From assembly GCA_030599585.1 (NCBI GenBank), contig JAUVNS010000020.1, positions 1 to 64,000 of the forward strand: a DNA stretch of 64,000 nucleotides. Direction: 5' to 3'. The DNA comes from Promethearchaeota archaeon (GTDB lineage: Archaea; Asgardarchaeota; Lokiarchaeia; Sigyniarchaeales; SOKP01). Shown piece after piece: positions 40,376 through 54,552 of the stretch. Each line of letters starts with the position of its first letter. The first letter of the stretch is position 1. The notes beneath the pieces were generated by a model that did not search any database, was not told the origin of the DNA, and saw nothing but the letters and a program-made list of their open reading frames with translations. Position numbers and translations under genes: made by a program.

Positions 40376-40392
40376 AAGAGGAAAATTGTTAA

Positions 40393-41169
40393 ATGTCTTT
40401 AGAGTTTCTGAGTGCGTTCAAATTCTTGAAAAAAGAGACTTTCCTCCACAGGTTAGATCCAAGAACTAAATTATTACTAGCGATAACGTACACCATTAGC
40501 GCTCTATTATTTCAAGAAATAATCCCCCTATTGCTAATTTTAATAACCCTACTCCCTGTAATAATCGTAGGAAAATTGTTTAAAAGATGGTTGAAGAGCG
40601 TCAAAGGAATGTCTTTCCTCTATATTTTTATTATTGTTCTTAATACGCTATTTATTGATGAAAATGGATTAACATTCGCCATTGCTATGATCTTAAGGAT
40701 TTCTATAATGATTTCAGCATTCTCCTTGTTTTTTTTAACTGTAGATCCAAACGATTTAGCCCTTTCCTTAATAACTATGAAAATACCATACGAATATGCG
40801 TTTTCTTTCTCGTTGGCATTTAGATTTGTTCCAACTATTGCTATAGAAACACAAAATATCATCGACGCTCAGCAGAGTCGAGGGTATGAAATGCAAAAAA
40901 AAGGGATTATAAATCAAATAAAAAACCTATTTCCTCTCTTAATTCCTCTTATAGTTAGTTCTATAAAAAGAGCCTTTAACGTAGCAGAAGCCTTAGAATC
41001 ACGATCTTTTGGTAATAAAAAAGATCGGACATTTTATTATACGATTAGATATTCCTTAAAAGATTGGATATTTTCGCTATACTTAATTCTTTTATTGACT
41101 TTTTTAATATTTATTAGAATTAACTTCATGATAATGCCATTATGGTTTAGATGGAGTTTACCTTTATGA
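40393..41169 (+). CDS. ecfT: ECF transporter transmembrane subunit T
   Basis: Motifs LHRLDPRTKL, LAFRFVP, AQQSRG and ALESRS. Confidence 0.92.
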   Translation: MSLEFLSAFKFLKKETFLHRLDPRTKLLLAITYTISALLFQEIIPLLLILITLLPVIIVGKLFKRWLKSVKGMSFLYIFIIVLNTLFIDENGLTFAIAMILRISIMISAFSLFFLTVDPNDLALSLITMKIPYEYAFSFSLAFRFVPTIAIETQNIIDAQQSRGYEMQKKGIINQIKNLFPLLIPLIVSSIKRAFNVAEALESRSFGNKKDRTFYYTIRYSLKDWIFSLYLILLLTFLIFIRINFMIMPLWFRWSLPL

Positions 41170-41822
41170 GAATCTATTCTATTAAGAATTTAAATGGAGT
41201 TTCTAACTATCACATTGGAATTAACCAGATTGAGATTGATCCCGAAGAAATTCAAATAAAAGAATTAGTAGAATTAATTGAGGTTATCCAAAGTCAGCAT
41301 GAAGATACTATTTTACAATTCTTCAACGATAAATATATTCTAAACCCAGATCATGTATTACATGCTTGTTATTTCGTCCAAAAAGCCTTCTATACTAAAA
41401 GTAATATTTCAAATAAAAAGAATCTTGAACTACTTCTATATTTAGCTACTAAAAGACAAATAAAGCTAAGCCTCGAATGTTTTGGGGTAAATAGTTATAA
41501 TTTACACAATAAGAGAATAAGTTTTTGTATCATCTCTCAAAAGGATAATATTCAGCAAGTAAATATCGAAATTAATAGTTATTTGCATTCCAAGGATATT
41601 GGTCTAAATTTAGGAAATTTATCTATTGATAAGTTTAAAATCGTCAAAAAGTATTTTGAATTTTCTGACAACCAGATTTTAACCGTTTTGAAGGCTTATG
41701 GATATAAAAACGATGTATTAGATATAAATTCTTTAAATTTAGAAAGCTTATATGAAGTACTGACTGACTTATTATGTGAAAAAATGGCCTTATTAAGCTT
41801 AGAGAAAAGGAGATATATTTAG
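41151..41822 (+). CDS. cgi121: KEOPS subunit Cgi121
   Basis: Motif QFFN...HVLHA...AF...NISN...ELLLYLATKRQI. Confidence 0.85.
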   Translation: MEFTFMRIYSIKNLNGVSNYHIGINQIEIDPEEIQIKELVELIEVIQSQHEDTILQFFNDKYILNPDHVLHACYFVQKAFYTKSNISNKKNLELLLYLATKRQIKLSLECFGVNSYNLHNKRISFCIISQKDNIQQVNIEINSYLHSKDIGLNLGNLSIDKFKIVKKYFEFSDNQILTVLKAYGYKNDVLDINSLNLESLYEVLTDLLCEKMALLSLEKRRYI

Positions 41823-42361
41823 AACTTATTATACTTATTGTGGATAATAAAAATATCATCGGGATTTAGAAACGATATCCCACTAACATTTCCGAGCAGT
41901 TCAATTTTTATAATTTTATCTGGATTTTCCAAATCGACTCTATTAGGAATAATTTTTGCTACTGATTCAATAATGGCATTTCTTTCTATAATCTCATTTT
42001 TTCTGCGTTTCAATTCAATCTTAAAAGAATCTTCTTTGTTTAAATAAAGAGGGTAATATTTTTCTACAAAATTTTTTATTACCTTTAATTTAGTTTCACA
42101 CACATAATCAATAGGAACAATTTTAAGTATGAATTGAAAAAAATTGGAATCTCTCTCTAAGATTTCTTTAATTTTTCGTATTACTTCTTTAGTATCCATG
42201 TTGGTTGCAGCGGTTATTAATCCAGGATATTTGATCCCTTGAATTATGGGATAAGTATCGCCACACATTAACAGAGTAAACCAAATTTCTGCTTTTGCAT
42301 TTACTTCGTTATATCTCGAAGTTGAGACTAATAAATTAAAGTTATTCAATATTTGCTCCAA
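41819..42361 (-). CDS. Stand-alone THUMP-domain protein (Tan1-like)
   Basis: Motif KIVPIDY...SFKIELKRR...VDLENPDKIIKIE. Confidence 0.88.
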   Translation of the reverse strand: MEQILNNFNLLVSTSRYNEVNAKAEIWFTLLMCGDTYPIIQGIKYPGLITAATNMDTKEVIRKIKEILERDSNFFQFILKIVPIDYVCETKLKVIKNFVEKYYPLYLNKEDSFKIELKRRKNEIIERNAIIESVAKIIPNRVDLENPDKIIKIELLGNVSGISFLNPDDIFIIHNKYNKF

Positions 42362-42365
42362 ATAG

Positions 42366-43034
42366 TTAATCTTTATTTAATCTAATAAAATCTTCAATTT
42401 CCTCTTCTTTTACGACCCCAATCCGCAATATCCTTAACTCTTCTGAAGTACAATCAAGGATTGTTGTGGGAACTTTCGTTTTGGTTTTTCCCCCATCAAG
42501 TATTAAATCTATTGGTGTTAAAAATTTTTTCGCTACTTGGTCTCCACTTATAGATGGAGGTTCTCCAGAATAATTAGCCGAAGTTCCTATTATTCCACCA
42601 AAATATCCGTTTACTTTTAATCTTTTCAAAATAGTTAGAACGATTTCGTTTTCTGGTATGCGAATACCAATCGTATTTTTACCAGCCGTAACTTCGGGAG
42701 GAATAATATTTGGTTCCTTCTTATTTAATATTAAAGTCAGTTGACCGGGCCAGAAGCGTTCAGCTAATTTATAACCTATTTTGTTAAATTCCGCGACTTT
42801 TTCTGCTTCTTCAATATCTGCAACTAATAGTAATAATCCTTTTGAACGATCTCGATACTTGATATCATAAATCCTATTTATTACTTCAAGATTGAGGGGA
42901 TCTCCCCCTAAACCATAAACCGAATTAGTTGGAAAAGCAATTACGCCTCCGTCGTTTATGACTTCGACCGCTTTTTCGAGAAACATATCGATCTCTTCCA
43001 ATTTCTTACCCGCAATTTTCACTAGTAATCCCAT
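42366..43034 (-). CDS. sua5: L-threonylcarbamoyladenylate synthase (TsaC/Sua5, YrdC domain only)
   Basis: Motifs FPTNSVYGL, IKYR...K, FWPGQLT, GIRIP and TSANYSG. Confidence 0.92.
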   Translation of the reverse strand: MGLLVKIAGKKLEEIDMFLEKAVEVINDGGVIAFPTNSVYGLGGDPLNLEVINRIYDIKYRDRSKGLLLLVADIEEAEKVAEFNKIGYKLAERFWPGQLTLILNKKEPNIIPPEVTAGKNTIGIRIPENEIVLTILKRLKVNGYFGGIIGTSANYSGEPPSISGDQVAKKFLTPIDLILDGGKTKTKVPTTILDCTSEELRILRIGVVKEEEIEDFIRLNKD

Positions 43035-43186
43035 ATAAAGTAAAAAATGATGATTAAGATAAAAAATTCTTCTAAATTTTTTTCCGTTAGTAATAAAATC
43101 TATTCGTTGTTATACGAAAGTGTGTGTAGTTGTTATTTTAAGATTATCGTTATTTCTTCTCAATATGAGTTTAAAAAATACATGGT

Positions 43187-43546
43187 TTAATTTCGGGTAA
43201 TTTCCACAATTCTTTCGTCTATTAATTTTAACAAAATCCAATCCTCGTCGTGAAAGAGAAATTGTTCAATAAGTTTGGTAAAACCTTTCATATGGTCGCG
43301 AATTATCATTTTTTGAGTTCTATCTAAATTATCATGTTTCATACCTTCTTTACGAATTACATTTTCAATAAATAATGCTATTCTACCCAGGATTAGGTCG
43401 CTTGTTGGTTCCAACAATACTCCAATGATAAGATACGTTGTTTTTTTTTTCTTAAGAAAAAAACTTTTCGAAAACTTCACGGTTATTTTGCGCACCACGC
43501 TGTCGTGATATCCGTTCCCGTGCGATCTTCCAACTTTTATTGACAT
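43187..43546 (-). CDS. Hypothetical protein
   Basis: 119-aa ORF divergent from the AbrB-like gene. No motif recognised. Confidence 0.5.
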   Translation of the reverse strand: MSIKVGRSHGNGYHDSVVRKITVKFSKSFFLKKKKTTYLIIGVLLEPTSDLILGRIALFIENVIRKEGMKHDNLDRTQKMIIRDHMKGFTKLIEQFLFHDEDWILLKLIDERIVEITRN

Positions 43547-43567
43547 TTTTTTATCATCATCTCATAT

Positions 43568-43601
43568 AGTATTATACTTAGTGTATACTTAATATTATAC
43601 T
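43568..43601. promoter_or_regulatory. Imperfect inverted repeat between divergent island genes (operator or recombinase-type site)
   Basis: AGTATTATACTTAG-TGTATA-CTTAATATTATACT: 14-bp arms, 11/14 complementary, 6-bp spacer. Confidence 0.4.
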
Positions 43602-43685
43602 GACTCTAGTTAAATAACAAAGGGGGGCGTGGATTTTTTGTATTACACCTAAAGTTATAAATAGTATAATAGTTTATGTATACCT

Positions 43686-43838
43686 ATGGAAAAAGAATTA
43701 ATTACCATTCTCGTAAAAAAACCCTCAAAAAAAGGAAAGAACTACTATTTTAGCATACCAATCGAATTTATTCGCACAAAAAAAATTGACCCTGAGAAAG
43801 ACTACGAACTTCACATTTTCTCTATTGCTCACGAATAA
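43686..43838 (+). CDS. Small AbrB/MazE-like (swapped-hairpin) DNA-binding protein, absent from the ORF track
   Basis: MEKELITILVKKPSKKGKNYYFSIPIEFIRTKKIDPEKDYELHIFSIAHE (50 aa). The KxG...xIP...xxIxPxxxxxL pattern is AbrB-like. Confidence 0.72.
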   Translation: MEKELITILVKKPSKKGKNYYFSIPIEFIRTKKIDPEKDYELHIFSIAHE

Positions 43839-43928
43839 GGTAAACGTAATTATACATAGAAAATAAGTCTGTAAAAGCTTCAAGTTCGCGTTCAGATAAA
43901 GTAAACATAGAAACAAAAAGTTCAAAAG

Positions 43929-44005
43929 GCTTGGAGCGACCCGTTAGCCCTTGATGGTTGCGGAGCGAAGCGGAGCAAGGTCGCGACAGCGAAGCGAAGC
44001 GAAGC
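43929..44005 (+). other. GC-rich folded element with GCGAAGC mini-hairpins
   Basis: GCGACC/GGTCGC stem enclosing CCGTTA/TGATGG and TTGC-GGA-GCGAAGC-GGA-GCAA, followed by GCGAAGCGAAGCGAAGC. Confidence 0.55.
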
Positions 44006-44323
44006 TAAATACTAATTTTTTTAGATGTAACGAGAGTCCTCAAATGTTCAAATGTTCAGATGCTGAAGAATTATCCAACCATATCTTTAAATTTCTAGAT
44101 TTTTCTTCGATATTGAGACTTAACTTAGCTTGTTTTCTTAATCCTCATAGCTTTAAATAGAATTGGTTTCATATACCCCGTTTATTCACATTTACGTAAA
44201 TAATTATAAGCTTGATTATTATCTTGTATCTTATAAACTCTAATAAAAAAAATGTAAATCCAATTCAATTAAGATTAAATATCCTAATAAAAAAGGAACA
44301 AATGAAAAGATTAGGTGTTGTCT

Positions 44324-46330
44324 ATGCGCGTAAATGATAATGATGTCGATATTACCGAAATAGAAGCATCAGCAATTAAAGATTTGGAAAAATTAATAGG
44401 AGAATATCCTACAGTGGAAATAGAAGATACGCGAGTTATAAGTCTTGATATTTCCAACCTTCAGCTTAAGGAATTGCCACAATCTATTGGAAACCTTTCT
44501 AACTTACAAACACTTAATATTAGCAGTAATCAGCTTGATGAATTACCAGAATCCATCGGGAAGCTCTCAAACTTACAAACACTTAATATTTCCTACAATC
44601 AGCTTGATGAATTGCCAGAATCCATTGGAAACCTATCTAACTTACAAACACTTTATATTTCCTACAATCAGCTTAAAGAGTTGCCAGAATTCATTGGAAA
44701 CCTATCTAACTTACAAACACTTAATATTCCCAGTAATCAGCTTGATGAATTACCAGAATCCATCGGGAAGCTCTCAAACTTACAAACACTTAGTATTTCC
44801 TACAATCAGCTTAAAGAGTTGCCAGAATCCATTGGAAACCTATCTAACTTACAAAGACTTAATATTTCCTACAATCAGCTTAAAGAGTTGCCAGAATCCA
44901 TTGGAAACCTATCTAACTTACAAACACTTGTTATGTTCAATATTCATCTTAAGGAATTACCAGAATCCATTGGAAACCTATCTAACTTACAAATGCTTGA
45001 TATTTCCAATAATCAGCTTAAAGAGTTGCCAGAATCCATTGGAAACCTATCTAACTTACAAACACTTGATATTAATAAGAATTATATATCCACATTTCCA
45101 GATTCAATTCTAAAAATGGAAAACATTAAGGTTCAGCTTGAAAAATCATTTAATTTTCTACTTGCTCTTAATTATTTTCCAAAGAAATATTCGGTTAAAG
45201 AGGGTGATACAAAAGAAAAAATAAACAAAAAAGATCGATCAAATATTACTGTACAAAAACATCTATTCTCTAAATTAGCCAAAAGCACTATGAAATCATA
45301 TTATTGGAATTTCATTACGGGATTTTCCGAATGGATTTCTTTTATTTTTCGAATTTCTCAATGGAAATTTTCACTATACCAAATAAATTCTAGCACAGAC
45401 AAAAAACAGCGGGAATTAATTGATCTTAAGGAGGGAGAAAACACAAAACATTTAGATCATCCAAATAGAAAAAATAATTTCATAGAACTTCAGATGGTTA
45501 TAGAATTAGAAATTCCTCCCATTTATTCCTCTATGTTCCAAGATTTGACTCAACAATTTATATTTTTGACTCCACTTATTCGTAGCATAACTTTAACGGC
45601 TGAGACAGATAGAGGTGACTCAATTCCATTGGTTTTTACAGATTTTTATTTTATGTGGAATAAGGAGACTCAAGAAAATGAATTTCAGAAAACTTTAATG
45701 CTCAAATTTGATCCAGGTTACGCAATTGAACCTTTTGTTAGAATCGACTTTACAGATGTTAAAGTTGAGTATGAATCCACACTTCTGCCTGATTCCCATC
45801 GGGAATCTCCAGAATTAGCTGTACTTCGTTCTGAAATCGGAAGAATTAATAAAAACTTTGATTTTATAAGGGAATTTATTGAGAAAAAAGAGAATTTTAA
45901 ATTTCCTTCTGATAAAGAACTTAAAACTTATGAAGAAAGAGAAAATTCCGATTTAAAGATTAAGGAATCTAAAGAAATTTTTGAAGCATTTGAGAACGCT
46001 TGGCGTGAGCCAATTCTTCCGACTGTCATCCTTGAAATAGGTAGGAGAGCAGGCAAAGTAGGCAAGAAATGGGGCAGTTGGTTGGGTAAATATGCAGATT
46101 ATTTGGCTGCGGGTGTTATTGTCGCGGGTGTAATCCCTTCACTTTTACAGTTCTTGTATAAATTCTTTGCCAGTATCGGAAAATGGGGGCTTATTGATTG
46201 GGTCACTTGGGATTTAAATCAAATATCCGTCCCTGCAATTTTCGAAATTTTGACCTATAGTCCATTGTTTATACTTTTCGTTTATTTAACAATCAAATTT
46301 TTACTCAGACAAAGAATACCTAAGGAATAA
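44324..46330 (+). CDS. Leucine-rich-repeat protein with C-terminal transmembrane anchor
   Basis: Nine full plus one degenerate 23-aa LxIxxNQLxELPESIGNLSNLQ repeats; two C-terminal hydrophobic helices; AGGTG SD before ATG 44324. Confidence 0.9.
   Translation: MRVNDNDVDITEIEASAIKDLEKLIGEYPTVEIEDTRVISLDISNLQLKELPQSIGNLSNLQTLNISSNQLDELPESIGKLSNLQTLNISYNQLDELPESIGNLSNLQTLYISYNQLKELPEFIGNLSNLQTLNIPSNQLDELPESIGKLSNLQTLSISYNQLKELPESIGNLSNLQRLNISYNQLKELPESIGNLSNLQTLVMFNIHLKELPESIGNLSNLQMLDISNNQLKELPESIGNLSNLQTLDINKNYISTFPDSILKMENIKVQLEKSFNFLLALNYFPKKYSVKEGDTKEKINKKDRSNITVQKHLFSKLAKSTMKSYYWNFITGFSEWISFIFRISQWKFSLYQINSSTDKKQRELIDLKEGENTKHLDHPNRKNNFIELQMVIELEIPPIYSSMFQDLTQQFIFLTPLIRSITLTAETDRGDSIPLVFTDFYFMWNKETQENEFQKTLMLKFDPGYAIEPFVRIDFTDVKVEYESTLLPDSHRESPELAVLRSEIGRINKNFDFIREFIEKKENFKFPSDKELKTYEERENSDLKIKESKEIFEAFENAWREPILPTVILEIGRRAGKVGKKWGSWLGKYADYLAAGVIVAGVIPSLLQFLYKFFASIGKWGLIDWVTWDLNQISVPAIFEILTYSPLFILFVYLTIKFLLRQRIPKE
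44441..45130 (+). repeat. 69-bp tandem coding repeat (LRR units)
   Basis: Near-identical units such as ...aatcagcttaaagagttgccagaatccattggaaacctatctaacttacaa. Confidence 0.95.
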
Positions 46331-46415
46331 TATAAGTTAACTTTGCATTTTGTTTAATAGCATAAAACTTGACTCAAAAAAATGCACTCCCACCGTGGCG
46401 ACTCGGGCGCGTCCG

Positions 46416-46971
46416 CTCCGAAGGGGCAGTAGGACGCCAAGCCACGCAATAAGCGAAAATGGAGTTTAAAAAGAATGTTACTCCTGCGAAAGAAGATATC
46501 GTTTTTCTCGACTCAATTAAGGAAAGAATTGATTCGTTCGACTCTTACAGAAAAAATTTACGATTAGAAATATAAATCCAATTCACTTATAGGTCGTTGG
46601 TTTCCGTTTGTTCTTAGAAGATCGGGGTTGATGTGGGCTTAATCGCATCTTAGCCAAACTTAATAATTCAAAAGAGCCAATAGGCTCTAAGAATTACAAA
46701 AGTTAAAACGCTATAAACCCCCCATGTTTTAAAGGGGCTAATACATTAAAAAAATAAGTCTATAAGACGCTAATATCGATATAAAATCAGACAAGGGCAA
46801 TCGAACCTCTTAGGGTTCGTATCTTTTGCCCAATCTCTATAAAACCTAACGCCTAAGGCGTAAAAAGGTTTCCATGAATTTATTTTAGGTTTTATGGGTT
46901 ATGTTCTCTTTATTTAGAACCTTTGTCTCCTCCGAAGAAGCAGTAGGACGCCAAACCATGCACTAAGCGAA
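46416..46971 (+). repeat. 42-bp direct repeat pair (46416-46457 and 46930-46971) flanking a structured non-coding segment
   Basis: CTCCGAAGGGGCAGTAGGACGCCAAGCCACGCAATAAGCGAA vs CTCCGAAGAAGCAGTAGGACGCCAAACCATGCACTAAGCGAA (37/42 identical). Confidence 0.85.
46626..46928 (+). ncRNA. Candidate multi-stem structured RNA (or ssDNA) of unknown class
   Basis: Many nested stems, e.g. AACTT/TAATTC/AGAGCC pairing with GGCTCT/GAATTA/AAGTT, and AGACAA...TTGTCT enclosing GGGCAA/TTGCCC and TATAAAACCTAA/TTAGGTTTTATG. G-U pairs favour the + strand. Confidence 0.4.
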
Positions 46972-47304
46972 GCGACAATACCAAAGTAGCGCGAAGAGTT
47001 CGTAGAAGTTTAAGTAATTGGCGTTCCGAAGGTTTTAAAATAAAGGGCGAATATCGTGTAGTTAATACTGATTACTTTGGGCATTACTGGAAATTGTTGT
47101 TTTTTTTATCTCTGCCAACTCAATCATTTCATTCCTCAAATTGTCGTTCCACTCTTACCTATTTTATCCTTTTCTTAAGCGATTACGAACATATCGCAAT
47201 GTTGAGAATAGAACGTAGCATTAATACACTTCTCCCGTGGGATCGTTGTTCTCTTCGACTTTAACGATCGTTCTCTCCTTAAACAAAACTGTTATTTTTT
47301 ATCA

Positions 47305-47580
47305 TTATGTTAAATTCGCTACTATAATCGCTACTGAAATCCAAATAATGCAACATAATCCTGCCAAAATTCTTTGTGACTTGGTAGCTCGTGTAGCTTC
47401 TCCACAGTCTGGGCATCGCTTTGGGTAACTATAAACCTGACCTCCGAAAGTAATAATAGCAAAAAAATTAGCTACTTGTTTTCCTGGAGTTTTTGGTTCT
47501 TTTATAGCCATTACTTCTTTTCCGCATTTTTTACAATATCTTCTTTTAACTTTTCTTATATCACTATTTTGCTCGTTCAT
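47305..47580 (-). CDS. Small zinc-ribbon membrane protein
   Basis: YCKKCG...RCPDCG flanking a hydrophobic stretch, plus a C-terminal TM. Confidence 0.7.
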   Translation of the reverse strand: MNEQNSDIRKVKRRYCKKCGKEVMAIKEPKTPGKQVANFFAIITFGGQVYSYPKRCPDCGEATRATKSQRILAGLCCIIWISVAIIVANLT

Positions 47581-47909
47581 CTTCGTTCCTTGGTTTTAAT
47601 TTTGATTTAGTTGTCTTACTAATCTATATTACTTTTTTAGTATTAAATAGTTTTAAGAATATTACCAGCAAAAAGCGAGAAAATACGGTAAAAGTAATAA
47701 AAAAAAAAAATAGAACCTTTCAGTAGTTACTATCGAATTTTTAAAGGAGCGACGGTTGCGACGCGATCTTTAGGAGCAAAACAACCGAGACCCTTTGAAA
47801 ATGAGCGGGATGGTTCGCGAAGGAAACCGAAGGGGTTTCCTTGCAAAATTACTTCTTAACGTTGCGAGATAAACACCTACAAAAAGAAAAAAACTCCCTA
47901 AATAGTCCC

Positions 47910-48239
47910 TTACCCGTCGTCCTCTCCGACCTTGCCCTCTAACTCTCTGCCAAACTCCACCAAGTTCGCAAAACCAATCGATCCCGCTCCCGAACCCGTA
48001 CCACCGTCTTCTGCAACTTTTTCTTCTACAAACCGCTTCACCGCTTCCCTGTACTCCCCAACCCTCTCCTTCGGCACGAATACCGTAATTAGCGCCCATT
48101 CCCCGTCCGAAGACACTTCCATCGCAAACTTATCAGTAACGCACCACTTCAACGCCTCCCGATACTCTTTAACCTTGCTCTTGGGGACTCGAACGCTCAC
48201 GAACGCCGATTCCTCTCCAAACTTCAACCTACGACCCAT
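47910..48239 (-). CDS. Tandem ribbon-helix-helix (CopG-like) DNA-binding protein
   Basis: Two similar units, VSVRVPKSKVKEYREALK and ITVFVPKERVGEYREAVK. TATA-like TTTATATA upstream. Markedly G-rich coding strand. Confidence 0.65.
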   Translation of the reverse strand: MGRRLKFGEESAFVSVRVPKSKVKEYREALKWCVTDKFAMEVSSDGEWALITVFVPKERVGEYREAVKRFVEEKVAEDGGTGSGAGSIGFANLVEFGRELEGKVGEDDG

Positions 48240-48301
48240 AAATGACCCCTACCCGACGCTACCCCAAACTCAAAGCTCATACTTACCTATATAAACGCAA
48301 C

Positions 48302-49295
48302 TATTTAATGCCCAACCTAAATTCCGTGACACGAAATTACTTCTATTACAACAGTACAAGAACTATTAGCTATCTAAAGACACTTTTTTTAATCAAAATT
48401 AAATAGGAAAAGTCTTATTCTCTATGTATGATCCCTAAATCGATAGAAGAATATATTAATCTTGGCGGGCAATTAAGTTACCTTAGATCTGCTAACGAAA
48501 ATAATATGGTTCACGGAGATATCAATATTTTAGGTAATATTAACACATTCCTTAAGAGCATTGAAAATTCAGAATTTAAAGTAACTCAAAATGCTTTATC
48601 AGAGCTTATTAAATATAAGGAAACATTGGAAAAAATGGATAGCGATGCTTATATTAGTAAAGAAGAAGCAAGACAACTTTACAAAATTATGGATAGAATA
48701 TTGCTTGTTTTAAGAGCTGAAACAAGAAACTTCTTCACGTTTTCTATTTCCGAAAAAAGAATAGATAGCACTAAATTAATTTTCAAGATTGATTTGCTTT
48801 TAGCAAAAGACGTATTTAATTCTCTTCCCGATTCAATTCAATACGATTTTAGCGAGGGGGGAAAATGTATTGCTTTCGAATGTGCAACAGCTTCAGCTTT
48901 CCATGTGTTAAGAGGGGTTGAAGGGTTATTAAGACTTCTACTAAAAAAACTTTCACCCTCAGTAGATGTCTCGAAAATGGTCTGGGGCAAAGTTGTCGAG
49001 GAACTAAAAAATCTTAACGTCGCAGCTCTTAGTGTTCTATTAGATAATTGTGATAGAATCAGAGATAATTATAGAAATCCTACTGACCATCCAGAAAAAA
49101 TATATGATATTGAAAAAGCGCAAGATTTGTTTAATCTATGTGTTGGTGTGGTAAACGATATTGTTGATTATATGAAAACTAACAATTTGTTGTAAGAGAG
49201 AAGTATTTATCTCATAACCTTTTTGATTTTAAAATTTATTCAATTAAAAGAACTTCATTATTTAATGCCCAACCTAAATTCCGTGCCACGAAATT
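48302..49295 (+). repeat. 37-bp direct repeats (48302-48338 and 49259-49295) with internal palindrome, flanking the HEPN gene
   Basis: TATTTAATGCCCAACCTAAATTCCGTG(A/C)CACGAAATT, 36/37 identical. Confidence 0.9.
48428..49195 (+). CDS. HEPN-domain protein (DUF4145-like), putative defence RNase
   Basis: ASAFHVLRGVEGLLR followed by an R-x4-H motif, RNPTDH. Confidence 0.75.
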   Translation: MIPKSIEEYINLGGQLSYLRSANENNMVHGDINILGNINTFLKSIENSEFKVTQNALSELIKYKETLEKMDSDAYISKEEARQLYKIMDRILLVLRAETRNFFTFSISEKRIDSTKLIFKIDLLLAKDVFNSLPDSIQYDFSEGGKCIAFECATASAFHVLRGVEGLLRLLLKKLSPSVDVSKMVWGKVVEELKNLNVAALSVLLDNCDRIRDNYRNPTDHPEKIYDIEKAQDLFNLCVGVVNDIVDYMKTNNLL

Positions 49296-49565
49296 CTTCT
49301 CGTAGCATTATTTAATAGCCTATATCAATATTAACCAGTAATCTAATTCAATTCAACCAGTAATTATTTTCGTCGTGTGTTCGTAAAACCCAACCTTATT
49401 CTATAAAACGAGCCTTCCCGTTATTTTCCAATTAATACTAATTATAAATAATCATAAAATAAAAATCATAAAAGATATGATTTAAAACTAGAAGAGCGGA
49501 CGAAACGCGATGTTCATCTCCTAAGAAGAACCACCTTTTCGTTTATAAAAATCGATCGTTTTTAG

Positions 49566-50456
49566 CTAACGAATATAATAAAATATTTCATTTTTTTTTA
49601 CTTCCAGCCCGATTTTGCCTAAAAAGTTTAAATCCTTCGAGATACCTTCGATCTCATCAATTTCAAGGCCCAATTGTTGAAGTTCAAGACATTTTTTGTT
49701 TAAAGAATGTGTTGTGAAAGCTTTTCCTTTGTTTTTCATAAGAAAATTACGAATTATTTGCTCTGCTTCCCTTCTCTTCTCTGGTTTCATGATTTCTTTA
49801 TTTTCTGCAGATTTCGGAATTCTTTGTCGTTTTCCAAGTTCAGAGTAAATTTCAAAAAGGCGGATAAACATCACTCGTTTAATAGCTCTCCCAGAAGGAA
49901 ATTCTTTCTTTCTGTATTGTCCTGAATCAAAACGTAATTTTCTTTTTTTTAATCTTTCTTTACCAGGGAATATGATTTCTACTCGACCAAGTGTCACTGA
50001 TGGTCTTCTATATCCTGGTTTTGTAGTATGGATACTTGCTTGAGCAAGAATTACTTCTTTCCAATGAAAGCAACCTTTTTTAAAAACTTTTCGATAATAG
50101 AATCCTGAAGGACCAATAACAACAAAGTGCCTTATATGGGTAATGCAGATAGGAAAAAATATTAAAAATCCTATGACAGGAATTTCGATTGAAGTTGATA
50201 TTAACATGATCTCAAAATAACTTTCCCCCGAGTAGGGCAGCATTACTGACATAAATATAGCATATAAAATTGGTATAATTACAAAAAGGGAAAAAATTAT
50301 CTTACCTCCCTTCAGCACAAATGTTTTTCCTTCCACAAACGCTCTCTCAATTTGCTCTCCTGTCCCGTATTTTCCAAATGTATATTTTCCTTTTTTATAG
50401 TTTCTGTAGGTCTCTCTCAATTCTTTTAAAATATTATGATTATCCATGTTTTTCAC
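49566..50456 (-). CDS. Two-TM membrane protein with PH-like domain and C-terminal wHTH-like segment
   Basis: Two TMs; FVVIGPSGFYYRK...FHWKEV; IIRNFLMKNKGKAFT. Paralogous to 50469-51119. Confidence 0.6.
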   Translation of the reverse strand: MKNMDNHNILKELRETYRNYKKGKYTFGKYGTGEQIERAFVEGKTFVLKGGKIIFSLFVIIPILYAIFMSVMLPYSGESYFEIMLISTSIEIPVIGFLIFFPICITHIRHFVVIGPSGFYYRKVFKKGCFHWKEVILAQASIHTTKPGYRRPSVTLGRVEIIFPGKERLKKRKLRFDSGQYRKKEFPSGRAIKRVMFIRLFEIYSELGKRQRIPKSAENKEIMKPEKRREAEQIIRNFLMKNKGKAFTTHSLNKKCLELQQLGLEIDEIEGISKDLNFLGKIGLEVKKNEIFYYIR

Positions 50457-50468
50457 ATCTCAATTAAT

Positions 50469-51119
50469 TCAAAACTTAGGTGGTTCGAATGTTCCTAGTT
50501 TACCGTAATTATAATAATTCAAAAATGCATAAAAACTCAAAATATGAATTTGCCTCCCCCGAATCGTTTTGGGGAATTCTTTCGTGGTATAATCGACATT
50601 GTTGAAAAAATCTCCGTTTGGTGTTGAAATATACATAGTTTGAACAATATCGAGATATGCTCTTGATAATTCTCTTGTTTCTTCAACAAATTCTATACCA
50701 ATGTCTTTCCACTTACAAGATTTTATAGCCCCTCTCTTCTTATAGACTATTCCTTCTGCGCCGAGAACCATAAAATTTGTAACATTCCATAATCCAGCAA
50801 TCAAAAATGGAAGACCAAGTAGAGCAAAGCCAAAGATTGGTAGAAGACTCGTCATAAAAATAGATAAGCTAGAAGTAAAAACTTCTATACCAAAGACAAC
50901 ATAAAGACTAAGTGTAAATATTAATCCAATAGAAATAAAAATTATTCCTAATATAATTGCTATTTTTATACCTGGTGTAGTAAACACAATTTTCTTTCCA
51001 TTCCTTACTGCGTTCCTAATATCATTTACTGAAGCTATGGTCTCATACTCGTATTTGCCTTCTTTATAGTTCTGAAAGCTTAAAACATAGTCATCTATAT
51101 TGTTGTGAAAAGGACTCAC
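50469..51119 (-). CDS. Two-TM membrane protein with PH-like domain
   Basis: NYKEGKY N-terminus, two TMs, FMVLGAEGIVYKK...CKWKDI, and a KEFP motif shared with its neighbour. Confidence 0.6.
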   Translation of the reverse strand: MSPFHNNIDDYVLSFQNYKEGKYEYETIASVNDIRNAVRNGKKIVFTTPGIKIAIILGIIFISIGLIFTLSLYVVFGIEVFTSSLSIFMTSLLPIFGFALLGLPFLIAGLWNVTNFMVLGAEGIVYKKRGAIKSCKWKDIGIEFVEETRELSRAYLDIVQTMYISTPNGDFFNNVDYTTKEFPKTIRGRQIHILSFYAFLNYYNYGKLGTFEPPKF

Positions 51120-51200
51120 CCATTTTTAATTATCATAATAATTATTAATTTCATTAATATAAAAGCTTTGACTGAAATGTTAAAAAATAAAACTTAAATC

Positions 51201-51260
51201 GTTTCGTATCACGCTATTTCCCAATCGTGACACGCTATTACCTATAATGTGCCACGAAAT
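51201..51260. repeat. Three phased copies of the CGTG(A/C)CACG-type motif at 21-22 bp spacing
   Basis: CGTATCACG (51205), CGTGACACG (51226), TGTGCCACG (51248). Confidence 0.7.
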
Positions 51261-51433
51261 ATTCACGTCTTGTATCTTGATATATTATACGAAAGTATAA
51301 AACCCTCGATAATATTCTCTACTGCGGTTTCGAAAACAAATTCTAAATCTTGAATTTTTTTTCCTTTAAGTTTTATTAAAAAACCCATTTGGATTCATTT
51401 AGATTATAAGTTTATTGTCTAATAAAAAAGCCT

Positions 51434-52372
51434 TCACTGATGATTTTCTTGGCAGGATAATTCATCAGCGAGATTAGCCCACTGAAGATCGATTCTTTCT
51501 TGAAGTTCAACTAATTCTTTTTCAGATAATTTTGAAAATCGTTTCTGTCTTGATAAGTAATCGATTAGTGGAGTTCTTTTTGAGGGATCTAATAATGGTT
51601 TGCTTTTTTTTGATAAAGTTAAAACACCATTTTCGATTTCGTATAAAATCCAAGAACCTGTTTTAACTGCTAAGCGAGGAATTTCAATGGCGTCCTCGGA
51701 TGCAATACCCCATCCCGGCGGACAAGAAGCTAAAATGTGAATGTATTTGCATCCTTCAATTGATTTTGCTTTTTTAAATTTCTCATAAAGATCGAGAGGT
51801 TCGCTTACAGAACAAGTAGCAACATAAGGGATATCATGTGCCGCCATTATCCTTGGTAGATTTTTCTTATATCGTTCTTTTCCTAATGTGGTTGTAGTTG
51901 TTATTGCTCCATGTGGTGTGCTAGATGATCGTTGAACTCCAGTATTCATATATGCTTCGTTATCGTAACAGCAATAAATGATATTAGAATTTCTTTCAGC
52001 GGCACCGCTTAAGCCTTGAATCCCAATATCCGTTGTTCCTCCATCGCCAGCAAAAACTAAAGTCGTCATTTTTTCCCACACTTTGCCTGGAAATCTATAC
52101 GATTTTGCTTTAAAAGCTGCAGAAACTCCTGTTGCTGCTGCCGCTCCGGCAGCAAATGCCATATTCATAAACGGAAAATTTGGTGCTGTCTTTGGCCATA
52201 ATCCAACAACGACATTTAAACAACTAGCAGGAGTAACTAACGATGTATTTGGACCAAGAGCTTTCATAGCCCACCTTAAAGCAATTTCAAGACCGCAACC
52301 AGCACATGTGGAATTTCCTGCTAAAAAATATTCTTCTTGTCCAATTTCTAATGCTTCCTTTATGGATACCAT
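51434..52372 (-). CDS. porB: Pyruvate/2-oxoacid:ferredoxin oxidoreductase beta subunit
   Basis: Motifs CAGCG, GDGG-DIG-Q-LSGA-ER, YDNEAYMNTG-QRS and CPPGW. Confidence 0.92.
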   Translation of the reverse strand: MVSIKEALEIGQEEYFLAGNSTCAGCGLEIALRWAMKALGPNTSLVTPASCLNVVVGLWPKTAPNFPFMNMAFAAGAAAATGVSAAFKAKSYRFPGKVWEKMTTLVFAGDGGTTDIGIQGLSGAAERNSNIIYCCYDNEAYMNTGVQRSSSTPHGAITTTTTLGKERYKKNLPRIMAAHDIPYVATCSVSEPLDLYEKFKKAKSIEGCKYIHILASCPPGWGIASEDAIEIPRLAVKTGSWILYEIENGVLTLSKKSKPLLDPSKRTPLIDYLSRQKRFSKLSEKELVELQERIDLQWANLADELSCQENHQ

Positions 52373-52374
52373 AT

Positions 52375-53631
52375 CTAATCTACCTCCAATAATCCATCCC
52401 AGAAAGTCCCTTCAATCATATCTTTTGGTAACTCTCCAGTTTCATTTAATTTGTTCAATACTTTTAATTGATCTTTCTGTTGTTCTAATGAAACTTCTCT
52501 TCCACCTAAACCCATTATAATAGGTAGAATTTTTGTAGATGCTCCAGAACCATATAAGGCTGCTTTCACTTCACTGCTTACTGGACCTCCAGTCGGAGAT
52601 CCAAATGCAGTAGCTCTGTCAGCTACACCAAGAACCTTAACTTTATTTGCAATTTGTATAATATCTTCTACGGGAAACGGTCGAAGATATCTTAATTTTA
52701 CACATCCTACTTTGTAGCCTTCATTCCTAAGATCGTCGACAGCGTCTTCCATCTGCATGGCAAGTTCACCGTAGTTAAGTATAGCAATTTCTGCATCTTT
52801 CATTTGATATTCTTCAATTAATCCATTACCGTAAGATCTACCAAACTTTTTCTCGAACTCTGCGGTAACCTCCTTGATTTTTTTCTTTGCAAGAATATGA
52901 GTATAGTGAATTTTTAACCTAAATTCATTGTAGAAACCGGATGGCATGATAAGATTCCCGTGCATCATTGGTCTTTCAGGATCGAGAAAAATATGAGGCC
53001 ATCCTCTTTCTCCTGGAAGTGGTGGTAAAAAATCATCTACATCATCTTGGTCCTCGATGGTTACAGGTTTAGATGTATGAGATAAGGTAAATCCACCGTA
53101 TGCTACGAATTTAGGCAATAGAATTTCGTGATCTTCGCAAATTTTATATGACATTAAAACATCATCATAAATCTCTTGATGACTCGATGCAAATGAAATT
53201 ATCCAACCTGTATCTCTACAACTTATTATATCTGTAAAATCCGCCCAAATATTCCATGGAGGGGCAGGACCTCTCGAAGCAATTGTCGTTACTATAGGTA
53301 AACGAGCTCCTGCGGCCCAATGAACCATTTCATACATGTAAAATAAACCTTGTCCAGAGGTAGCAGTGAAAGTACGAGTCCCTGCAGTGCTTGCCCCTAT
53401 TATCGATGCCATTACTGAGTGTTCTGATTCGAATTTAATATATTGAGTTCCAGGCATCTCGCCGTTATCTGCGAACTCTGATAGTTTTTCTACTACAGTT
53501 GTTTGAGGAGTAATTGGATAAGCGCTTATCACTTGAACGCGTGCTGATTTCGCAGCGTAAGCTGCTGCTACATTTCCCTTTATTATTTTAGTTTCTCTTT
53601 CCTGCGTAAAATCTTCTTGTGCTTCAACCAT
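52375..53631 (-). CDS. porA: Pyruvate/2-oxoacid:ferredoxin oxidoreductase alpha subunit
   Basis: Motifs AYPITPQT, ESEHS, TATSGQG, RPFP and GLGGRE. Confidence 0.93.
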   Translation of the reverse strand: MVEAQEDFTQERETKIIKGNVAAAYAAKSARVQVISAYPITPQTTVVEKLSEFADNGEMPGTQYIKFESEHSVMASIIGASTAGTRTFTATSGQGLFYMYEMVHWAAGARLPIVTTIASRGPAPPWNIWADFTDIISCRDTGWIISFASSHQEIYDDVLMSYKICEDHEILLPKFVAYGGFTLSHTSKPVTIEDQDDVDDFLPPLPGERGWPHIFLDPERPMMHGNLIMPSGFYNEFRLKIHYTHILAKKKIKEVTAEFEKKFGRSYGNGLIEEYQMKDAEIAILNYGELAMQMEDAVDDLRNEGYKVGCVKLRYLRPFPVEDIIQIANKVKVLGVADRATAFGSPTGGPVSSEVKAALYGSGASTKILPIIMGLGGREVSLEQQKDQLKVLNKLNETGELPKDMIEGTFWDGLLEVD

Positions 53632-53632
53632 A

Positions 53633-53971
53633 TTAAACTTCACTCTCTCTAACCATTTCTATACTTTTTGTAGGGCATTCTTTAGCACATATGCCACAAC
53701 CTTTACAATACACATAATCAACTTCAAATTCTCCTTCTTCATTTCTGATTATTGTACCTTCGGGGCAATACATCCAGCAAATACCACATTTAGTACATGT
53801 ATCCCGATCAACAACAGGTTTAAACGTTCTCCAATCTCCTGTTGTCCCAATGCTTCCTTTAATAGGAAGTGAGATGGGTATTGGGGGCAATTCTTTCCAA
53901 TTTTTATATTCTTGAACTTCAGGTCGCTTGTCTTTGTCTTCACATATATTCTTCCATTTCTCCTTATTCAT
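53633..53971 (-). CDS. porD: 2-oxoacid:ferredoxin oxidoreductase delta subunit
   Basis: Motif TGDWRTFKP...CTKCGICWMYCP...YCKGCGICAKECP. Confidence 0.93.
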   Translation of the reverse strand: MNKEKWKNICEDKDKRPEVQEYKNWKELPPIPISLPIKGSIGTTGDWRTFKPVVDRDTCTKCGICWMYCPEGTIIRNEEGEFEVDYVYCKGCGICAKECPTKSIEMVRESEV

Positions 53972-54552
53972 TCAAATTCGACCTCCTTAACGCTATTATA
54001 GGCTTCGACAGCAACCTCTAAATTTTTTTTGCCTTTAGCTTCTCCAAATTCGCTATAGATCACTTTTTTCATAGTGTCTAAATTATAAAAGCCAGTTAAT
54101 TGCCCAAATGCCCCCAGCATTGGAATGTTCAAAATTGGTCCACTTGAATGCATAAATCCTAATTTTATGCAGATTCCCGTGGCATCAACAATAAAAATCT
54201 TAATGTTTTCAGGAAATTCGCAAGTATCTATCTGGTTTTTTGTATTAATTAATAATGTGACTCCACTTTTTATCGAATCGAGAATTCTCTGAATATCTAA
54301 AAGGGAGGGATCAAAAATTAACATGTAATCTGGATCTATTACACTATCGTAAGTTTTTATCGTTTTGTCCCTTGATAACTTAGTGAATGCTTGAATTGGT
54401 GCCCCTCTCCGCTCTGCTCCAATAATCGGAATAGCAATAGCATCTTTAAAACTTTCTTCGTAAGCTAATTGAGCCAATAGCTGGCTAGCAGTTATTGCGG
54501 TTTGACCTCCTCGACCATGAAAGGTAATTTCTATTATTCCATTATCCGTCAA
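53968..54552 (-). CDS. porG: 2-oxoacid:ferredoxin oxidoreductase gamma subunit
   Basis: Motifs HGRGGQ, GAERRGAP, VDAT and N-PMLGA. Confidence 0.93.
   Translation of the reverse strand: MTDNGIIEITFHGRGGQTAITASQLLAQLAYEESFKDAIAIPIIGAERRGAPIQAFTKLSRDKTIKTYDSVIDPDYMLIFDPSLLDIQRILDSIKSGVTLLINTKNQIDTCEFPENIKIFIVDATGICIKLGFMHSSGPILNIPMLGAFGQLTGFYNLDTMKKVIYSEFGEAKGKKNLEVAVEAYNSVKEVEFE

Follow-up and report, generated by a model that had tools for sequence, protein, structure and literature searches.

IS91 elements have two unlike ends, use CTTG/GTTC targets without target duplication, move mini-elements in trans, and mobilize adjacent DNA upon failure of the ter end (PMC13181058). RepA of SNJ1, a haloarchaeal sphaerolipovirus, is an RCR initiator reported to be homologous to IS91 transposases (Wang et al. 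2018, as cited in PMC6563490), and NitAQ6f-E2, a thaumarchaeal cryptic integrated element known from one genome, also encodes an SNJ1-type rolling-circle Rep (PMC6563490). The DSO of pGT5 and pTN1 is GGGTTTATCTTG/ATA (PMC9569500).

We analyzed a window of 64,000 nucleotides (the whole stretch of a Lokiarchaeia contig under study) containing an island at 42944 to 51301, which probably belongs, as a degenerate and non-autonomous copy, to a Lokiarchaeia family of rolling-circle elements integrated in the chromosome. This mobile-element family is apparently new to the literature, and "undescribed Asgard gene-capture system," as the initial annotation called the locus, is still a fair label. Similarly to IS91/ISCR elements, the Loki elements have unlike ends without inverted repeats, a CTTG-containing candidate origin at one end, a predicted HUH nuclease with zinc-binding Cys pairs from a clade tied to IS91 via SNJ1 RepA, DNA carried along next to the weaker end, a small accessory protein gene, and end-only copies that may move in trans as those of IS91 do (PMC13181058). 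In contrast to these bacterial elements, the Loki elements have an archaeal host and are known from sequence alone, span 2 to 28 kb at a few fixed intragenic sites, have a 12- to 14-nt direct repeat common to both ends, and hold the CTTG inside the conserved end rather than in the target; their Rep matches neither Pfam Y2_Tnp nor the IS91 zinc domain and has only one invariant Tyr. The small AbrB/MazE-type and RHH-type genes that accompany rep recall SNJ1. Unlike SNJ1, pGT5, and pTN1, all Loki copies seen are chromosomal insertions with no episome detected, and they lack capsid or packaging genes. Whereas NitAQ6f-E2 is described from a single genome, the Loki elements form a family with mapped ends, targets, and Rep-less derivatives. 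The elements also resemble Helitrons in having a predicted rolling-circle HUH enzyme, a majority of non-autonomous copies with only termini in common, captured host gene fragments, and a short palindrome near one end. Compared with these eukaryotic elements, however, the Loki Rep lacks a helicase fusion and has one predicted catalytic Tyr, and the elements prefer sites inside specific genes of a prokaryotic host.

Insertion in sua5 and empty sites

Comparison with empty sites revealed an 8358-bp insertion that interrupts sua5 at codon ~30. In at least six congeneric genomes (G002, G010, G011, G006, G013, and G018), window position 42943 is joined straight to 51302, with similarity to the window ending at 42943, and one contig from another metagenome has the same joint with GTTT between. 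The DNA between the two 12-mers noted in the initial annotation is a real insertion, but its sua5-side boundary lies 166 nt to the left of the left 12-mer, beyond the bounds of 43110 to 51296 first given. The flanking genes are indeed sua5 and a porB-like TPP-binding gene (Table 1), the latter being 81 to 91% identical in G010, G013, G011, G006, and G002 and 73% identical in G018.

Fragments of the flanks are captured at the left end of elements. The left adapter of the island, which is also present in G014:C11 and metagenome contig L069, brings a foreign sua5 5' end that matches the native one at only 56 of 87 nt. The displaced native 5' end is identical at 82 to 83 of 87 nt to the functional sua5 5' ends of G010 and G002, and its 29 codons specify the residues found in G002. 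No simple rolling-circle model predicts that a foreign sua5 5' end should be fused in frame precisely where the insertion begins.

Restoration of an interrupted gene by an element-borne copy is comparable to phage integration into protein genes and would suit a remnant of an integrated rolling-circle plasmid or virus, in which Rep served replication only and a recombinase acting in trans (an XerA-like tyrosine recombinase of the host or an integrase from a different element) inserted and excised the DNA via the 12- to 14-nt direct repeat. Direct repeats at both ends are a classic footprint of site-specific integration, recurrent target sites are few, and the window's genome (G000) has two tyrosine recombinases (C31:1270 and C32:210086). 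However, the repeat present at both element ends is absent from the empty sua5 and CxxC-gene sites that we compared; these sites thus offer no common core for recombination, and the 12-mer is not a shared att core. The initial annotation had anticipated empty sua5-porB sites with a single 12-mer, of which the sites exist and the 12-mer does not. Furthermore, all eight mapped elements lack an integrase, PF00589 was unmatched in the element-carrying G013 and G040 assemblies, the second G000 integrase is part of a different, unrelated element and has no comparable site in its vicinity, and G000 has no serine recombinase or Y1 transposase. We consider such a remnant an unlikely source of the island.

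Table 1. Features of the sua5 insertion and its flanks (positions in the window)
Feature	Position	Strand	Basis or remark
sua5, chimeric (codons ~31-222 native, codons 1-30 foreign)	42366-43034	-	PF01300, E 7e-53
Left adapter: foreign sua5 5' end (91 nt, in frame) and 75-nt upstream region, travels with insertion	42944-43109	-	
Left terminal direct repeat copy, TTATACGAAAGT	43110-43121	+	Other copies: 14 nt, TATTATACGAAAGT
Conserved left arm	43122-43186	+	~80% identical to left arms of G016:C49 and G013:C188
119-aa ORF; first 23 codons (43478-43546) HUH Rep gene remnant, rest unrelated	43187-43546	-	
Divergent rep/abrB-like control region	43547-43685		TATTATAC-type repeats
50-aa AbrB-like small protein, family backbone	43686-43838	+	Label from motif only
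GC-rich conserved non-coding block 1	43925-44015		87% identical in G016:C65
Cargo: LRR protein, two C-terminal hydrophobic segments	44315-46330	+	LRR_14 E 3e-57, LRR_8 E 7e-49; hydropathy
GC-rich conserved block 2	46378-46457		96% identical in G014:C11; repeat D2
Cargo: 91-aa zinc-ribbon protein, one hydrophobic segment	47305-47580	-	Weak zinc-ribbon Pfam matches; hydropathy
GC-rich conserved block 3	47734-47846		86-96% identical in G008, G014, G016
109-aa RHH-like small protein	47910-48239	-	Label from motif only
37-nt repeat copy 1, with CGTG-A-CACG	48302-48338	+	Repeat D4, 36/37 identical
Cargo: 255-aa protein, R-x4-H motif	48428-49195	+	HEPN-like, from motif only
37-nt repeat copy 2	49259-49295	+	
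Cargo: two membrane-protein genes (296 aa, 216 aa)	49566-51119	-	2 and 3 hydrophobic segments, respectively
Right arm, three short palindromic sites (CGT-ATC-ACG, CGTG-A-CACG, GTG-C-CAC)	51196-51270	+	
Invariant 27-mer: dso-like TATCTTG/ATA (51273-51282) and right 12-mer (51285-51296)	51271-51297	+	
Displaced native sua5 5' end (29 codons), now remnant	51302-51388	-	
porB-like TPP-binding gene, right flank	51434-52372	-	PF02775, E 3e-18

Conserved ends of an integrase-less element family

As initially annotated, TTATACGAAAGT occurs without mismatch at 43110-43121 and 51285-51296, on the + strand in each case. Judged within the window alone, this pair is weak evidence: the window holds 372 exact 12-mer direct pairs 2 to 20 kb apart, any two given 150-nt stretches have a 12-mer in common ~0.4% of the time, and the 4.85-Mb genome has four copies of TTATACGAAAGT versus 2.3 expected. 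The third copy (C23:75584-75595, - strand) is separated by 16 nt from a remnant of the C-terminal part of the Rep gene and thus belongs to the same element family.

The decisive support for an element comes instead from ends conserved across genomes. Of 42 congeneric genomes, 8 contain the right-end 25-mer TATCTTGATATATTATACGAAAGTA with at most one mismatch, at 11 places in total, and its 22-mer core occurs in 34 island-type metagenome contigs. A left-end 15-mer was found in four genomes, each time accompanied by a right end on its contig in the same orientation, and paired ends enclose different, variable cargo in eight elements of 2.0 to 28 kb. The 27-mer is identical in all six aligned copies, and the palindromic right arm is kept in four of six aligned right ends, a second arm variant having CGAG-A-CTCG sites instead. 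G016 contains a Rep-less copy (C49) alongside a Rep-bearing copy (C65). These findings support the island as a likely member of an integrase-less mobile family defined by its ends and bear out the earlier suggestion of a non-autonomous element, one that may be mobilized in trans. On the other side, co-occurrence of Rep and the right end is incomplete, as right ends are present in G013, G039, G041, and G051, whose assemblies lack Rep. The circular junctions also suggested earlier did not appear: among assembled contigs, we saw no circular form or excision junction, and in none of the 34 metagenome contigs was a right arm joined to a left arm.

We also considered a non-mobile hot spot, where homologous recombination between conserved regulatory blocks (the RHH operator region and GC-rich blocks, with the 12-mer as part of a promoter or terminator) would exchange variable genes. 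Close relatives do carry different cargo at one and the same site, conserved blocks are repeatedly the place of breakpoints, the right arm is located upstream of the RHH-like gene, and the CxxC-gene site and the site between the peptidase and CDC48 are occupied by unrelated inserts in other genomes. We nevertheless find such a hot spot improbable, since three or more unrelated loci have the same, sharply bounded ends, these ends do not vary between species with flanks only 65 to 90% identical, the Rep gene or its remnants accompany the ends, and the family is patchy, with one or two copies in each of the eight genomes.

The Rep protein and a putative nick motif

The mobile family's own enzyme is predicted from sequence and modeling to be an HUH rolling-circle nuclease. 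Three larger relatives, the islands G014:C11, G040:C14, and G016:C65, encode an intact Rep of 380 to 390 aa in genes without stops, and invariance across an alignment of 89 homologues is confined to H-x-H and a single Tyr. Rep had no Pfam, PHROG, or PDB-sequence matches. Its family profile matched SNJ1 RepA in hhalign with 98.9% probability (E 1e-17) over 196 columns covering both motifs. A structure search of 48,161 chains with an AlphaFold model of the Rep core (pLDDT 92) returned three chains with Z≥5 from two proteins, both HUH Reps (SIRV1 ORF119, Z 5.7; pMV158 RepB, Z 5.4 and 5.3), followed by MVM NS1, vientovirus Rep, Helitron transposase (Z 4.4), AAV Rep, and nanovirus Rep. These Z scores are modest (<8), and structural and sequence support are moderate.

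The initial annotation reported no recombinase, transposase, or Rep in the island. An integrase and an intact Rep are indeed missing, but the start of a rep gene persists: 21 of the 23 N-terminal residues of the window ORF P0002 are identical to those of the 388-aa Rep P0006. Rep remnants likewise adjoin the left repeat in L069 and G000:C23. With its Rep cut to 23 codons, the window's copy is non-autonomous and probably immobile, and because no intact Rep gene exists in the window's own genome, it is probably now fixed.

The conserved right end contains a putative nick motif of the pC194/pGT5 type. TATCTTG/ATA within the 27-mer agrees with the Rep75/Rep74 DSO of pGT5/pTN1, TTATCTTG/ATA (PMC9569500), at 10 of 11 bases. 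The 27-mer includes the 10-mer TATCTTGATA, which occurs 51 times in this AT-rich genome versus 43.5 expected, and the match could be due to chance. The predicted hairpin was no better than shuffles (z -1.1). Unlike the pGT5 DSO, located toward the 5' end within rep, the Loki motif is at the element's far end by the RHH-like gene. An HUH enzyme, a nick motif of this type at the end, and the lack of an integrase in any of the eight elements argue against the annotation's view of the boundary repeat as a loxP-like tyrosine-recombinase arm.

A candidate rolling-circle route

Intact members combine a predicted HUH endonuclease from the SNJ1-RepA/IS91 clade with two small predicted DNA-binding proteins, AbrB-like by rep and RHH-like by the right end. 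Their right end contains the putative nick site and a TATAC-GAAA-GTATA element, with phased palindromes upstream, ahead of the RHH-like gene, and only the 12 to 14 nt following the putative nick site are repeated at the left end. Rep may nick the right-end origin, copy or transfer one strand, and join it to nick-site-like chromosomal sequences (GCATCTG|CAT in a CxxCxxCC gene and GCAATTA|ATT in sua5). End-only elements would be mobilized in trans, sometimes with adjacent DNA, similarly to IS91-type one-ended transposition, and the window's copy would be such an element with a truncated Rep and cargo modules between conserved backbone blocks. The junctions do not fit a simple version of this route: they lie off the canonical nick position, 17 to 60 nt past that position, with an A-rich tail among them, are retained at the right end, and both ends have the 12- to 14-mer that empty sites lack. 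The element family suggests a route for moving receptor and defence genes in Loki-type Asgard archaea.

Backbone genes and cargo modules

The control region homologous to that of the island carries GTTATACGAAAA in G014, G016, and G040, and copies of the AbrB-like protein (66 to 70% identical) adjoin Rep in G014:C11, G016:C65, and G040:C14. The RHH-like gene, found in 19 of 45 end-bearing contigs and normally starting 195 nt inside the right end, is the sole gene widely common to the family. The AbrB-like protein had no Pfam match and the RHH-like protein no Pfam or PDB-sequence match; the motifs behind the AbrB-like, tandem RHH, and HEPN labels of the initial annotation are present, but the labels gained no Pfam, PHROG, or PADLOC support, the sole match of the HEPN-like protein being a PHROG of unknown function. 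Pfam confirmed the LRR cargo, and hydropathy indicates hydrophobic segments in the LRR tail and the 296-, 216-, and 91-aa ORFs, in keeping with the annotated membrane cargo.

The annotated families of intergenic repeats were confirmed. GC-rich block 1 is present once in the G000 genome and had no Rfam match, and block 2 has a partial second copy at 46925 to 46971. Metagenome contigs join exactly at repeats, verifying the repeat-delimited modules proposed earlier and supporting gain and loss of island modules at repeat boundaries. The LRR gene is skipped by the joints 43831>46378 and 43895>46642, the joint 46457>47734 starts at the end of block 2, and joints at 47734 recur.

One gene flanked by 37-nt repeats identical at 36 positions, together with cassette-less and one-cassette metagenome variants (joints 48338>51196, from the end of repeat copy 1, and 49303>51202, past copy 2), might also point to an integron-like cassette array without an integrase (CALIN-like), in which the 37-nt and end repeats act as attC/attI-type sites. 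Integrons have reportedly been found in Archaea. Even so, such an array is very improbable: G000 has no IntI-type integrase beyond its two PF00589 tyrosine recombinases, which lie on C31 and C32 while the island is on C4; inspection by eye found no paired RYYYAAC...GTTRRRY arms in the repeats; the module of membrane genes is encoded on the other strand; and the repeats are of a single, element-specific family rather than genome-wide. Cargo of the island recurs in the rolling-circle element family, with homologues of the 296- and 216-aa membrane proteins in other element copies. In G051:C57 and G039:C271, 85 to 95% identical copies of the 255-aa HEPN-like protein adjoin the right end.

The island is an insertion within sua5

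The island is flanked by Sua5 (PF01300) on one side and by a TPP-binding porB-like gene on the other. In a DNA search of 30 relatives, these flanks were adjacent, with no island between them, in six genomes (G002, G010, G011, G006, G013, and G018), confirming the initial annotation of the island as DNA inserted between the two genes. Homology to the empty-site genomes breaks off within sua5 and resumes beyond the right end of the island, and on a contig of another metagenome the two flanks meet at these positions with GTTT between them. We therefore place the insertion between these two breaks, with an insertion point at about codon 30 of sua5. The sua5-side boundary had been set at the 12-mer, which is incorrect, as the true edge lies inside the gene.

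The sequence next to the right end is the displaced native 5' end of sua5, which is identical to those of G010 and G002 at 82 to 83 of 87 positions and codes for the same 29 residues as in G002. The working sua5 begins with a foreign 5' end, just 56/87 identical to the native one, and with 75 nt of new upstream sequence. The same foreign adapter occurs in the island of G014:C11 and in metagenome contig L069. sua5 is a clear case of an element restoring the gene that it interrupts, replacing both its 5' end and its upstream region.

As first claimed, the 12-mer TTATACGAAAGT occurs exactly at both junctions. The window contains 372 exact 12-mer direct pairs spaced 2 to 20 kb apart, the chance of a shared 12-mer between two arbitrary 150-nt stretches is about 0.4%, and the source genome holds four copies of this 12-mer against 2.3 expected. 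The pair on its own is weak evidence; it is the cross-genome comparison that makes the repeat real. Empty sua5-porB sites had been predicted to carry a single 12-mer. Such sites exist and lack it, as do empty sites in a CxxCxxCC (PF03692) gene targeted by the same element family, and because of this absence the 12-mer is ruled out as a Campbell core.

Coordinates of features in the window (bare positions) and at other loci (C51 and other contigs given alone belong to the source genome, G000)
Feature	Location	Remark
Insertion	42944-51301	8358 bp
Break and restart of homology to empty sites	42943 / 51302	
12-mer, left copy	43110-43121	+ strand
12-mer, right copy	51285-51296	+ strand
Invariant right-end 27-mer	51271-51297	
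Displaced native sua5 5' end	51302-51388	87 nt
GC-rich non-coding blocks	43925-44015; 46378-46457 (and 46925-46971); 47734-47846	Recurrent breakpoints between modules
Module-skipping joints	43831>46378; 46457>47734; 48338>51196; 49303>51202	
32-nt motif	49376-49407	
Other copies of 32-nt motif	C51:7237; C32:203116; C12:1788; C30:14435	89-94% identical
C-terminal Rep remnant with nearby 12-mer	C23:75278-75595 (L021/L003)	Remnant ~97 aa
Separate mobile element	C32:202000-213232 (L114)	At contig end
Unbroken CxxCxxCC gene	C52:8589-9277	
Element in CxxCxxCC gene	G013:C188 (L020:2750-6270)	
Element downstream of CDC48	G040:C14:2750-31250 (L043, L044)	~28 kb
Ras-family GTPase gene	G014:C11 (L015:7994-8527)	PF00071, E 3e-42

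Elements with the same two ends occur in related genomes

The island's terminal 27 nt (TGTATCTTGATATATTATACGAAAGTA) show no difference among six aligned copies, and the flanks of these copies diverge immediately beyond. Of 42 congeneric genomes, 8 contain a 25-mer of this right end, at 11 places in total and one or two per genome, and its 22-mer core is present in 34 island-type metagenome contigs. The left-end motif was present in four genomes, each time matched by a right end on that contig and strand, and further pairs of ends were found on contigs L069, L076, and L079 and on G016:C65. Whereas the right end consists of the invariant 27 nt and an upstream arm, the left end shares just 12 to 14 nt with it and has a different arm. 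The family thereby has two functionally distinct ends without inverted repeats, a property by which IS91 elements are recognized. Where both ends are present, element sizes span 2.0 to about 28 kb, and the cargo differs each time. Their targets are few and recurrent: the 5' end of sua5, the CxxCxxCC gene, which is split, and a stretch downstream of a CDC48 gene. Among the genes, only that for an RHH-like protein of about 108 aa is widely shared within the family; it normally starts 195 nt inside the right end.

The family enzyme is a predicted HUH nuclease

A 119-aa ORF lies at the left of the island, and over its first 23 residues it is 91% identical to the N-terminus of P0006, a protein of 388 aa encoded in the G014 island. 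The initial annotation had reported no Rep in the island, which holds for an intact gene, but the first 23 Rep codons remain. Close homologues of the 388-aa Rep number 13 in Asgard metagenome bins, and a search of 1.84 billion proteins yielded 613 cluster representatives at E<=0.001. All homologues are hypothetical proteins, and the few cluster representatives with a named source come from Asgard and Pacearchaeota (DPANN) bins. Rep homologues had no Pfam, PHROG, or PDB-sequence match, and P0005, P0006, and ten distant homologues hit no Pfam family at E<=0.01, the IS91 Y2_Tnp and zinc-domain profiles included. BLAST against phage and plasmid collections returned nothing, and a scan of viral contigs found no Rep.

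In an alignment of 89 Rep sequences, the sole invariant residues were the two histidines of SPHFHxxGYG and one tyrosine of TxxYxLxH. In the predicted core model (pLDDT 92), the HUH motif SPHFHxxGYG lies on strand 113-127 and the tyrosine on the next helix, 154-163. A structural search with this model against 48,161 representative chains gave three chains at Z>=5, which represent two proteins, both HUH Reps: SIRV1 ORF119 (2x3g, 5.7) and pMV158 RepB (3dkx and 8amu, 5.4/5.3). These Z scores are modest. The next matches were parvovirus NS1, vientovirus Rep, Helitron transposase, AAV Rep, and nanovirus Rep, and the top 32 included seven further HUH nucleases. In an hhalign comparison, the Rep family profile matched SNJ1 RepA over 196 columns covering both motifs (98.9% probability, E 1e-17). 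SNJ1 RepA is reported to initiate rolling-circle replication of its virus and to share homology with the transposases of IS91 (Wang et al. 2018, as cited in PMC6563490). The metal motif, tyrosine, modeled fold, and homology together assign the P0006 family to the HUH endonuclease superfamily, with sequence-specific nicking and joining of single-stranded DNA as its predicted activity. The Rep loci of G032 and G042, which lack these ends, represent a more distant subfamily and were set aside; Rep-Arvir (PMC13107129) is a different, non-HUH family, and aloposons are unrelated to the element.

Intact Rep genes lie within the islands of G014:C11, G040:C14, and G016:C65. The source genome has two remnants only, the 23 codons in the window and a C-terminal piece on contig C23. 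The latter, a second trace of the family, is 63% identical to P0010 and ends 16 nt from a 12-mer copy on the opposite strand in the expected orientation. No right end was found at this locus, and the same arrangement of remnant and 12-mer is repeated in L069. A pure homologous-recombination hot spot, another explanation for such islands, would leave unexplained both the identical ends at unrelated loci and a Rep that travels with them.

The main rival to a Rep-driven element is a recombinase acting in trans on the terminal repeat, which the initial annotation had likened to a tyrosine-recombinase site. This explanation fails the empty-site comparison, since the empty sua5 and CxxC sites have no common core, and no integrase is linked to any element: neither PF00589 nor other Pfam recombinases were detected in eight mapped elements. 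A recombinase gene had been expected beside other copies; the mapped elements have none, and three carry an intact HUH Rep. The two tyrosine recombinases of the source genome are located away from the island, and neither a Y1 transposase nor a serine recombinase was found in that genome. The earlier picture of a non-autonomous, modular, possibly trans-mobilized element stands, without the proposed enzyme class and sua5-side boundary. One tyrosine recombinase considered as the island's enzyme belongs to an unrelated element on C32 with no similar site. That element also encodes a NikA-like RHH protein, a ParB-like protein, an Mrr nuclease, and an NYN-domain protein.

The right end resembles a rolling-circle origin

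The pC194/pUB110 plasmids and phiX174 have CTTG/ATA in common. The invariant 27-mer holds TATCTTGATA, and its GTATCTTGATA matches the pC194/pGT5-type nick sequence TTATCTTG/ATA at 10 of 11 positions, making it a candidate nick site. For the archaeal plasmids pGT5 and pTN1, the published double-strand origin is GGGTTTATCTTG/ATA (PMC9569500). Because the nick-motif 10-mer is common in the AT-rich source genome, this match counts only jointly with the Rep and the invariance of the site. Upstream of the 27-mer are three short palindromes, replaced in a second arm variant by a CGAG-A-CTCG palindrome; these right-arm palindromes probably bind the RHH-like protein. A TTATAC-GAAA-GTATAA hairpin was rejected as a stable fold, its energy being no better than those of shuffled sequences.

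The 22- to 24-nt right-end core (TATCTTGATATATTATACGAAAGT) also occurs in frame in a T4-type clamp-loader small-subunit gene (PF16790) on 16 phage contigs from IMG/VR and metagenomes (L050-L062, L065, L091, and L099). No similarity extends outside the exact core, and we dismissed the phage 22-mer as an attP and consider it a probable coincidence. An odd point is that all three diverged variants of the clamp-loader sequence retain the core.

Proposed movement of the elements

The element family most likely represents integrated rolling-circle elements. Rep would nick the origin at the right end and then join the strand to origin-like chromosomal sequences; the observed breaks lie at GCATCTG|CAT in the CxxC gene and at GCAATTA|ATT in sua5. 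Copies retaining only the ends would be moved in trans. In three elements, the left junction has the sequence ...CATCT|TATTATACGAAAGT; the repeat is therefore 14 nt long and is the sequence directly after the nick motif. The left end holds foreign flank pieces, 166 nt from sua5 and about 55 nt from a CxxC gene, that recall the one-ended transposition of IS91 (PMC13181058). The window's copy is a Rep-deleted derivative and is probably immobile.

Four observations fit this model poorly. Both ends bear the repeat, but the empty sites do not. The right end extends 5 to 45 nt past the repeat as an A-rich tail that is semi-conserved between sites and similar to the CxxC gene beside its insertion point, and the foreign 5' end of sua5 joins the gene in frame precisely at the break. 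Neither circles nor excision products turned up in the 34 contigs or in window-aligned contigs, which is uninformative since these are assembled contigs only.

The Rep is linked to IS91 solely via SNJ1 RepA, without a match to its Y2_Tnp or zinc-domain profiles. The IS91 target CTTG/GTTC abuts the ori end and is not duplicated on insertion. Here, CTTG sits 17 nt inside the right end, the two target sequences only resemble the nick site, and a target duplication may or may not be present. IS91 mobilizes DNA beside its ter-like end; here, the sua5 and CxxC flank pieces are at the left end. We found no description of the Rep family or its ends in the literature searched, and the elements are apparently an undescribed variant of rolling-circle mobile elements in the SNJ1 RepA/IS91 clade. 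A fuller model, which we offer tentatively and regard as somewhat less probable than its negation, is that these are Asgard-native IS91/Helitron-like rolling-circle transposons, in which one SNJ1-RepA-type HUH nuclease would replicate the element and insert it at nick-site-like sequences in genes, the interrupted gene would be repaired by a captured copy or 5' end, and Rep-less two-ended derivatives would be moved in trans, spreading receptor and defense genes between species.

Mobile elements of Asgard archaea are barely known; described in the literature searched are viruses, aloposons, and a small number of unassigned circular elements. An integrase-less rolling-circle family would account for variable islands beside core genes in Lokiarchaeia, would supply a testable origin sequence and initiator protein as a possible seed for genetic tools in this group, and would extend the IS91/SNJ1 RepA clade to the lineage closest to eukaryotes, where Helitrons share the chemistry.

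Cargo and modules

Contigs from related populations directly join backbone blocks while omitting single cargo modules, and the modular picture of the initial annotation is therefore right. Three GC-rich non-coding blocks lie at recurrent breakpoints between modules. They are 86 to 96% identical across species whose genes are 65 to 90% identical, are single-copy in the source genome, and match nothing in Rfam. Their possible roles include ncRNA, single-strand origin, and recombination site. Island blocks were rejected as genome-wide repeats on the basis of their single-copy state, bar one 32-nt motif (CGTGTGTTCGTAAAACCCAACC...) with copies on four other contigs. An Rfam scan of window positions 40000-54000 at a permissive threshold gave just a chance-level wcaG match, and no tRNA was found near the island. 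An integron-like (CALIN) array is not supported on inspection as a source of the modules: one GCCCAAC occurs in a 37-nt repeat, but no partner arm (RYYYAAC/GTTRRRY) was seen by eye, and there is no IntI nearby.

The AbrB-like, RHH, and HEPN labels given earlier to island proteins found no backing, since these proteins, like the membrane proteins, had no match in Pfam, PHROGs, or PADLOC. The RHH-like family profile had no match among PDB sequences, and an Atlas search with the HEPN-like protein gave only unnamed bacterial look-alikes and a weak DUF4145 lead.

Cargo across the elements includes an LRR protein, a Ras-like GTPase, and a NosD beta-helix protein; also present are an OLD-family nuclease, a type IIG restriction-modification enzyme, and HerA-like and KAP ATPases. 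In the element downstream of CDC48 in G040, an OLD-family nuclease (AAA_15 and TOPRIM), a type IIG MmeI/Eco57I-like enzyme, HerA-like and KAP ATPases, and an ABC ATPase occur together, and this element looks like a defense island on a rolling-circle backbone. The G014 island brings a Ras-family small GTPase as mobile-element cargo in a Lokiarchaeon. In G013, the element breaks the CxxCxxCC gene, unbroken in the source genome and five others, into pieces of 117 aa and 71 aa, and within the element is a full-length 206-aa paralogue of this gene.
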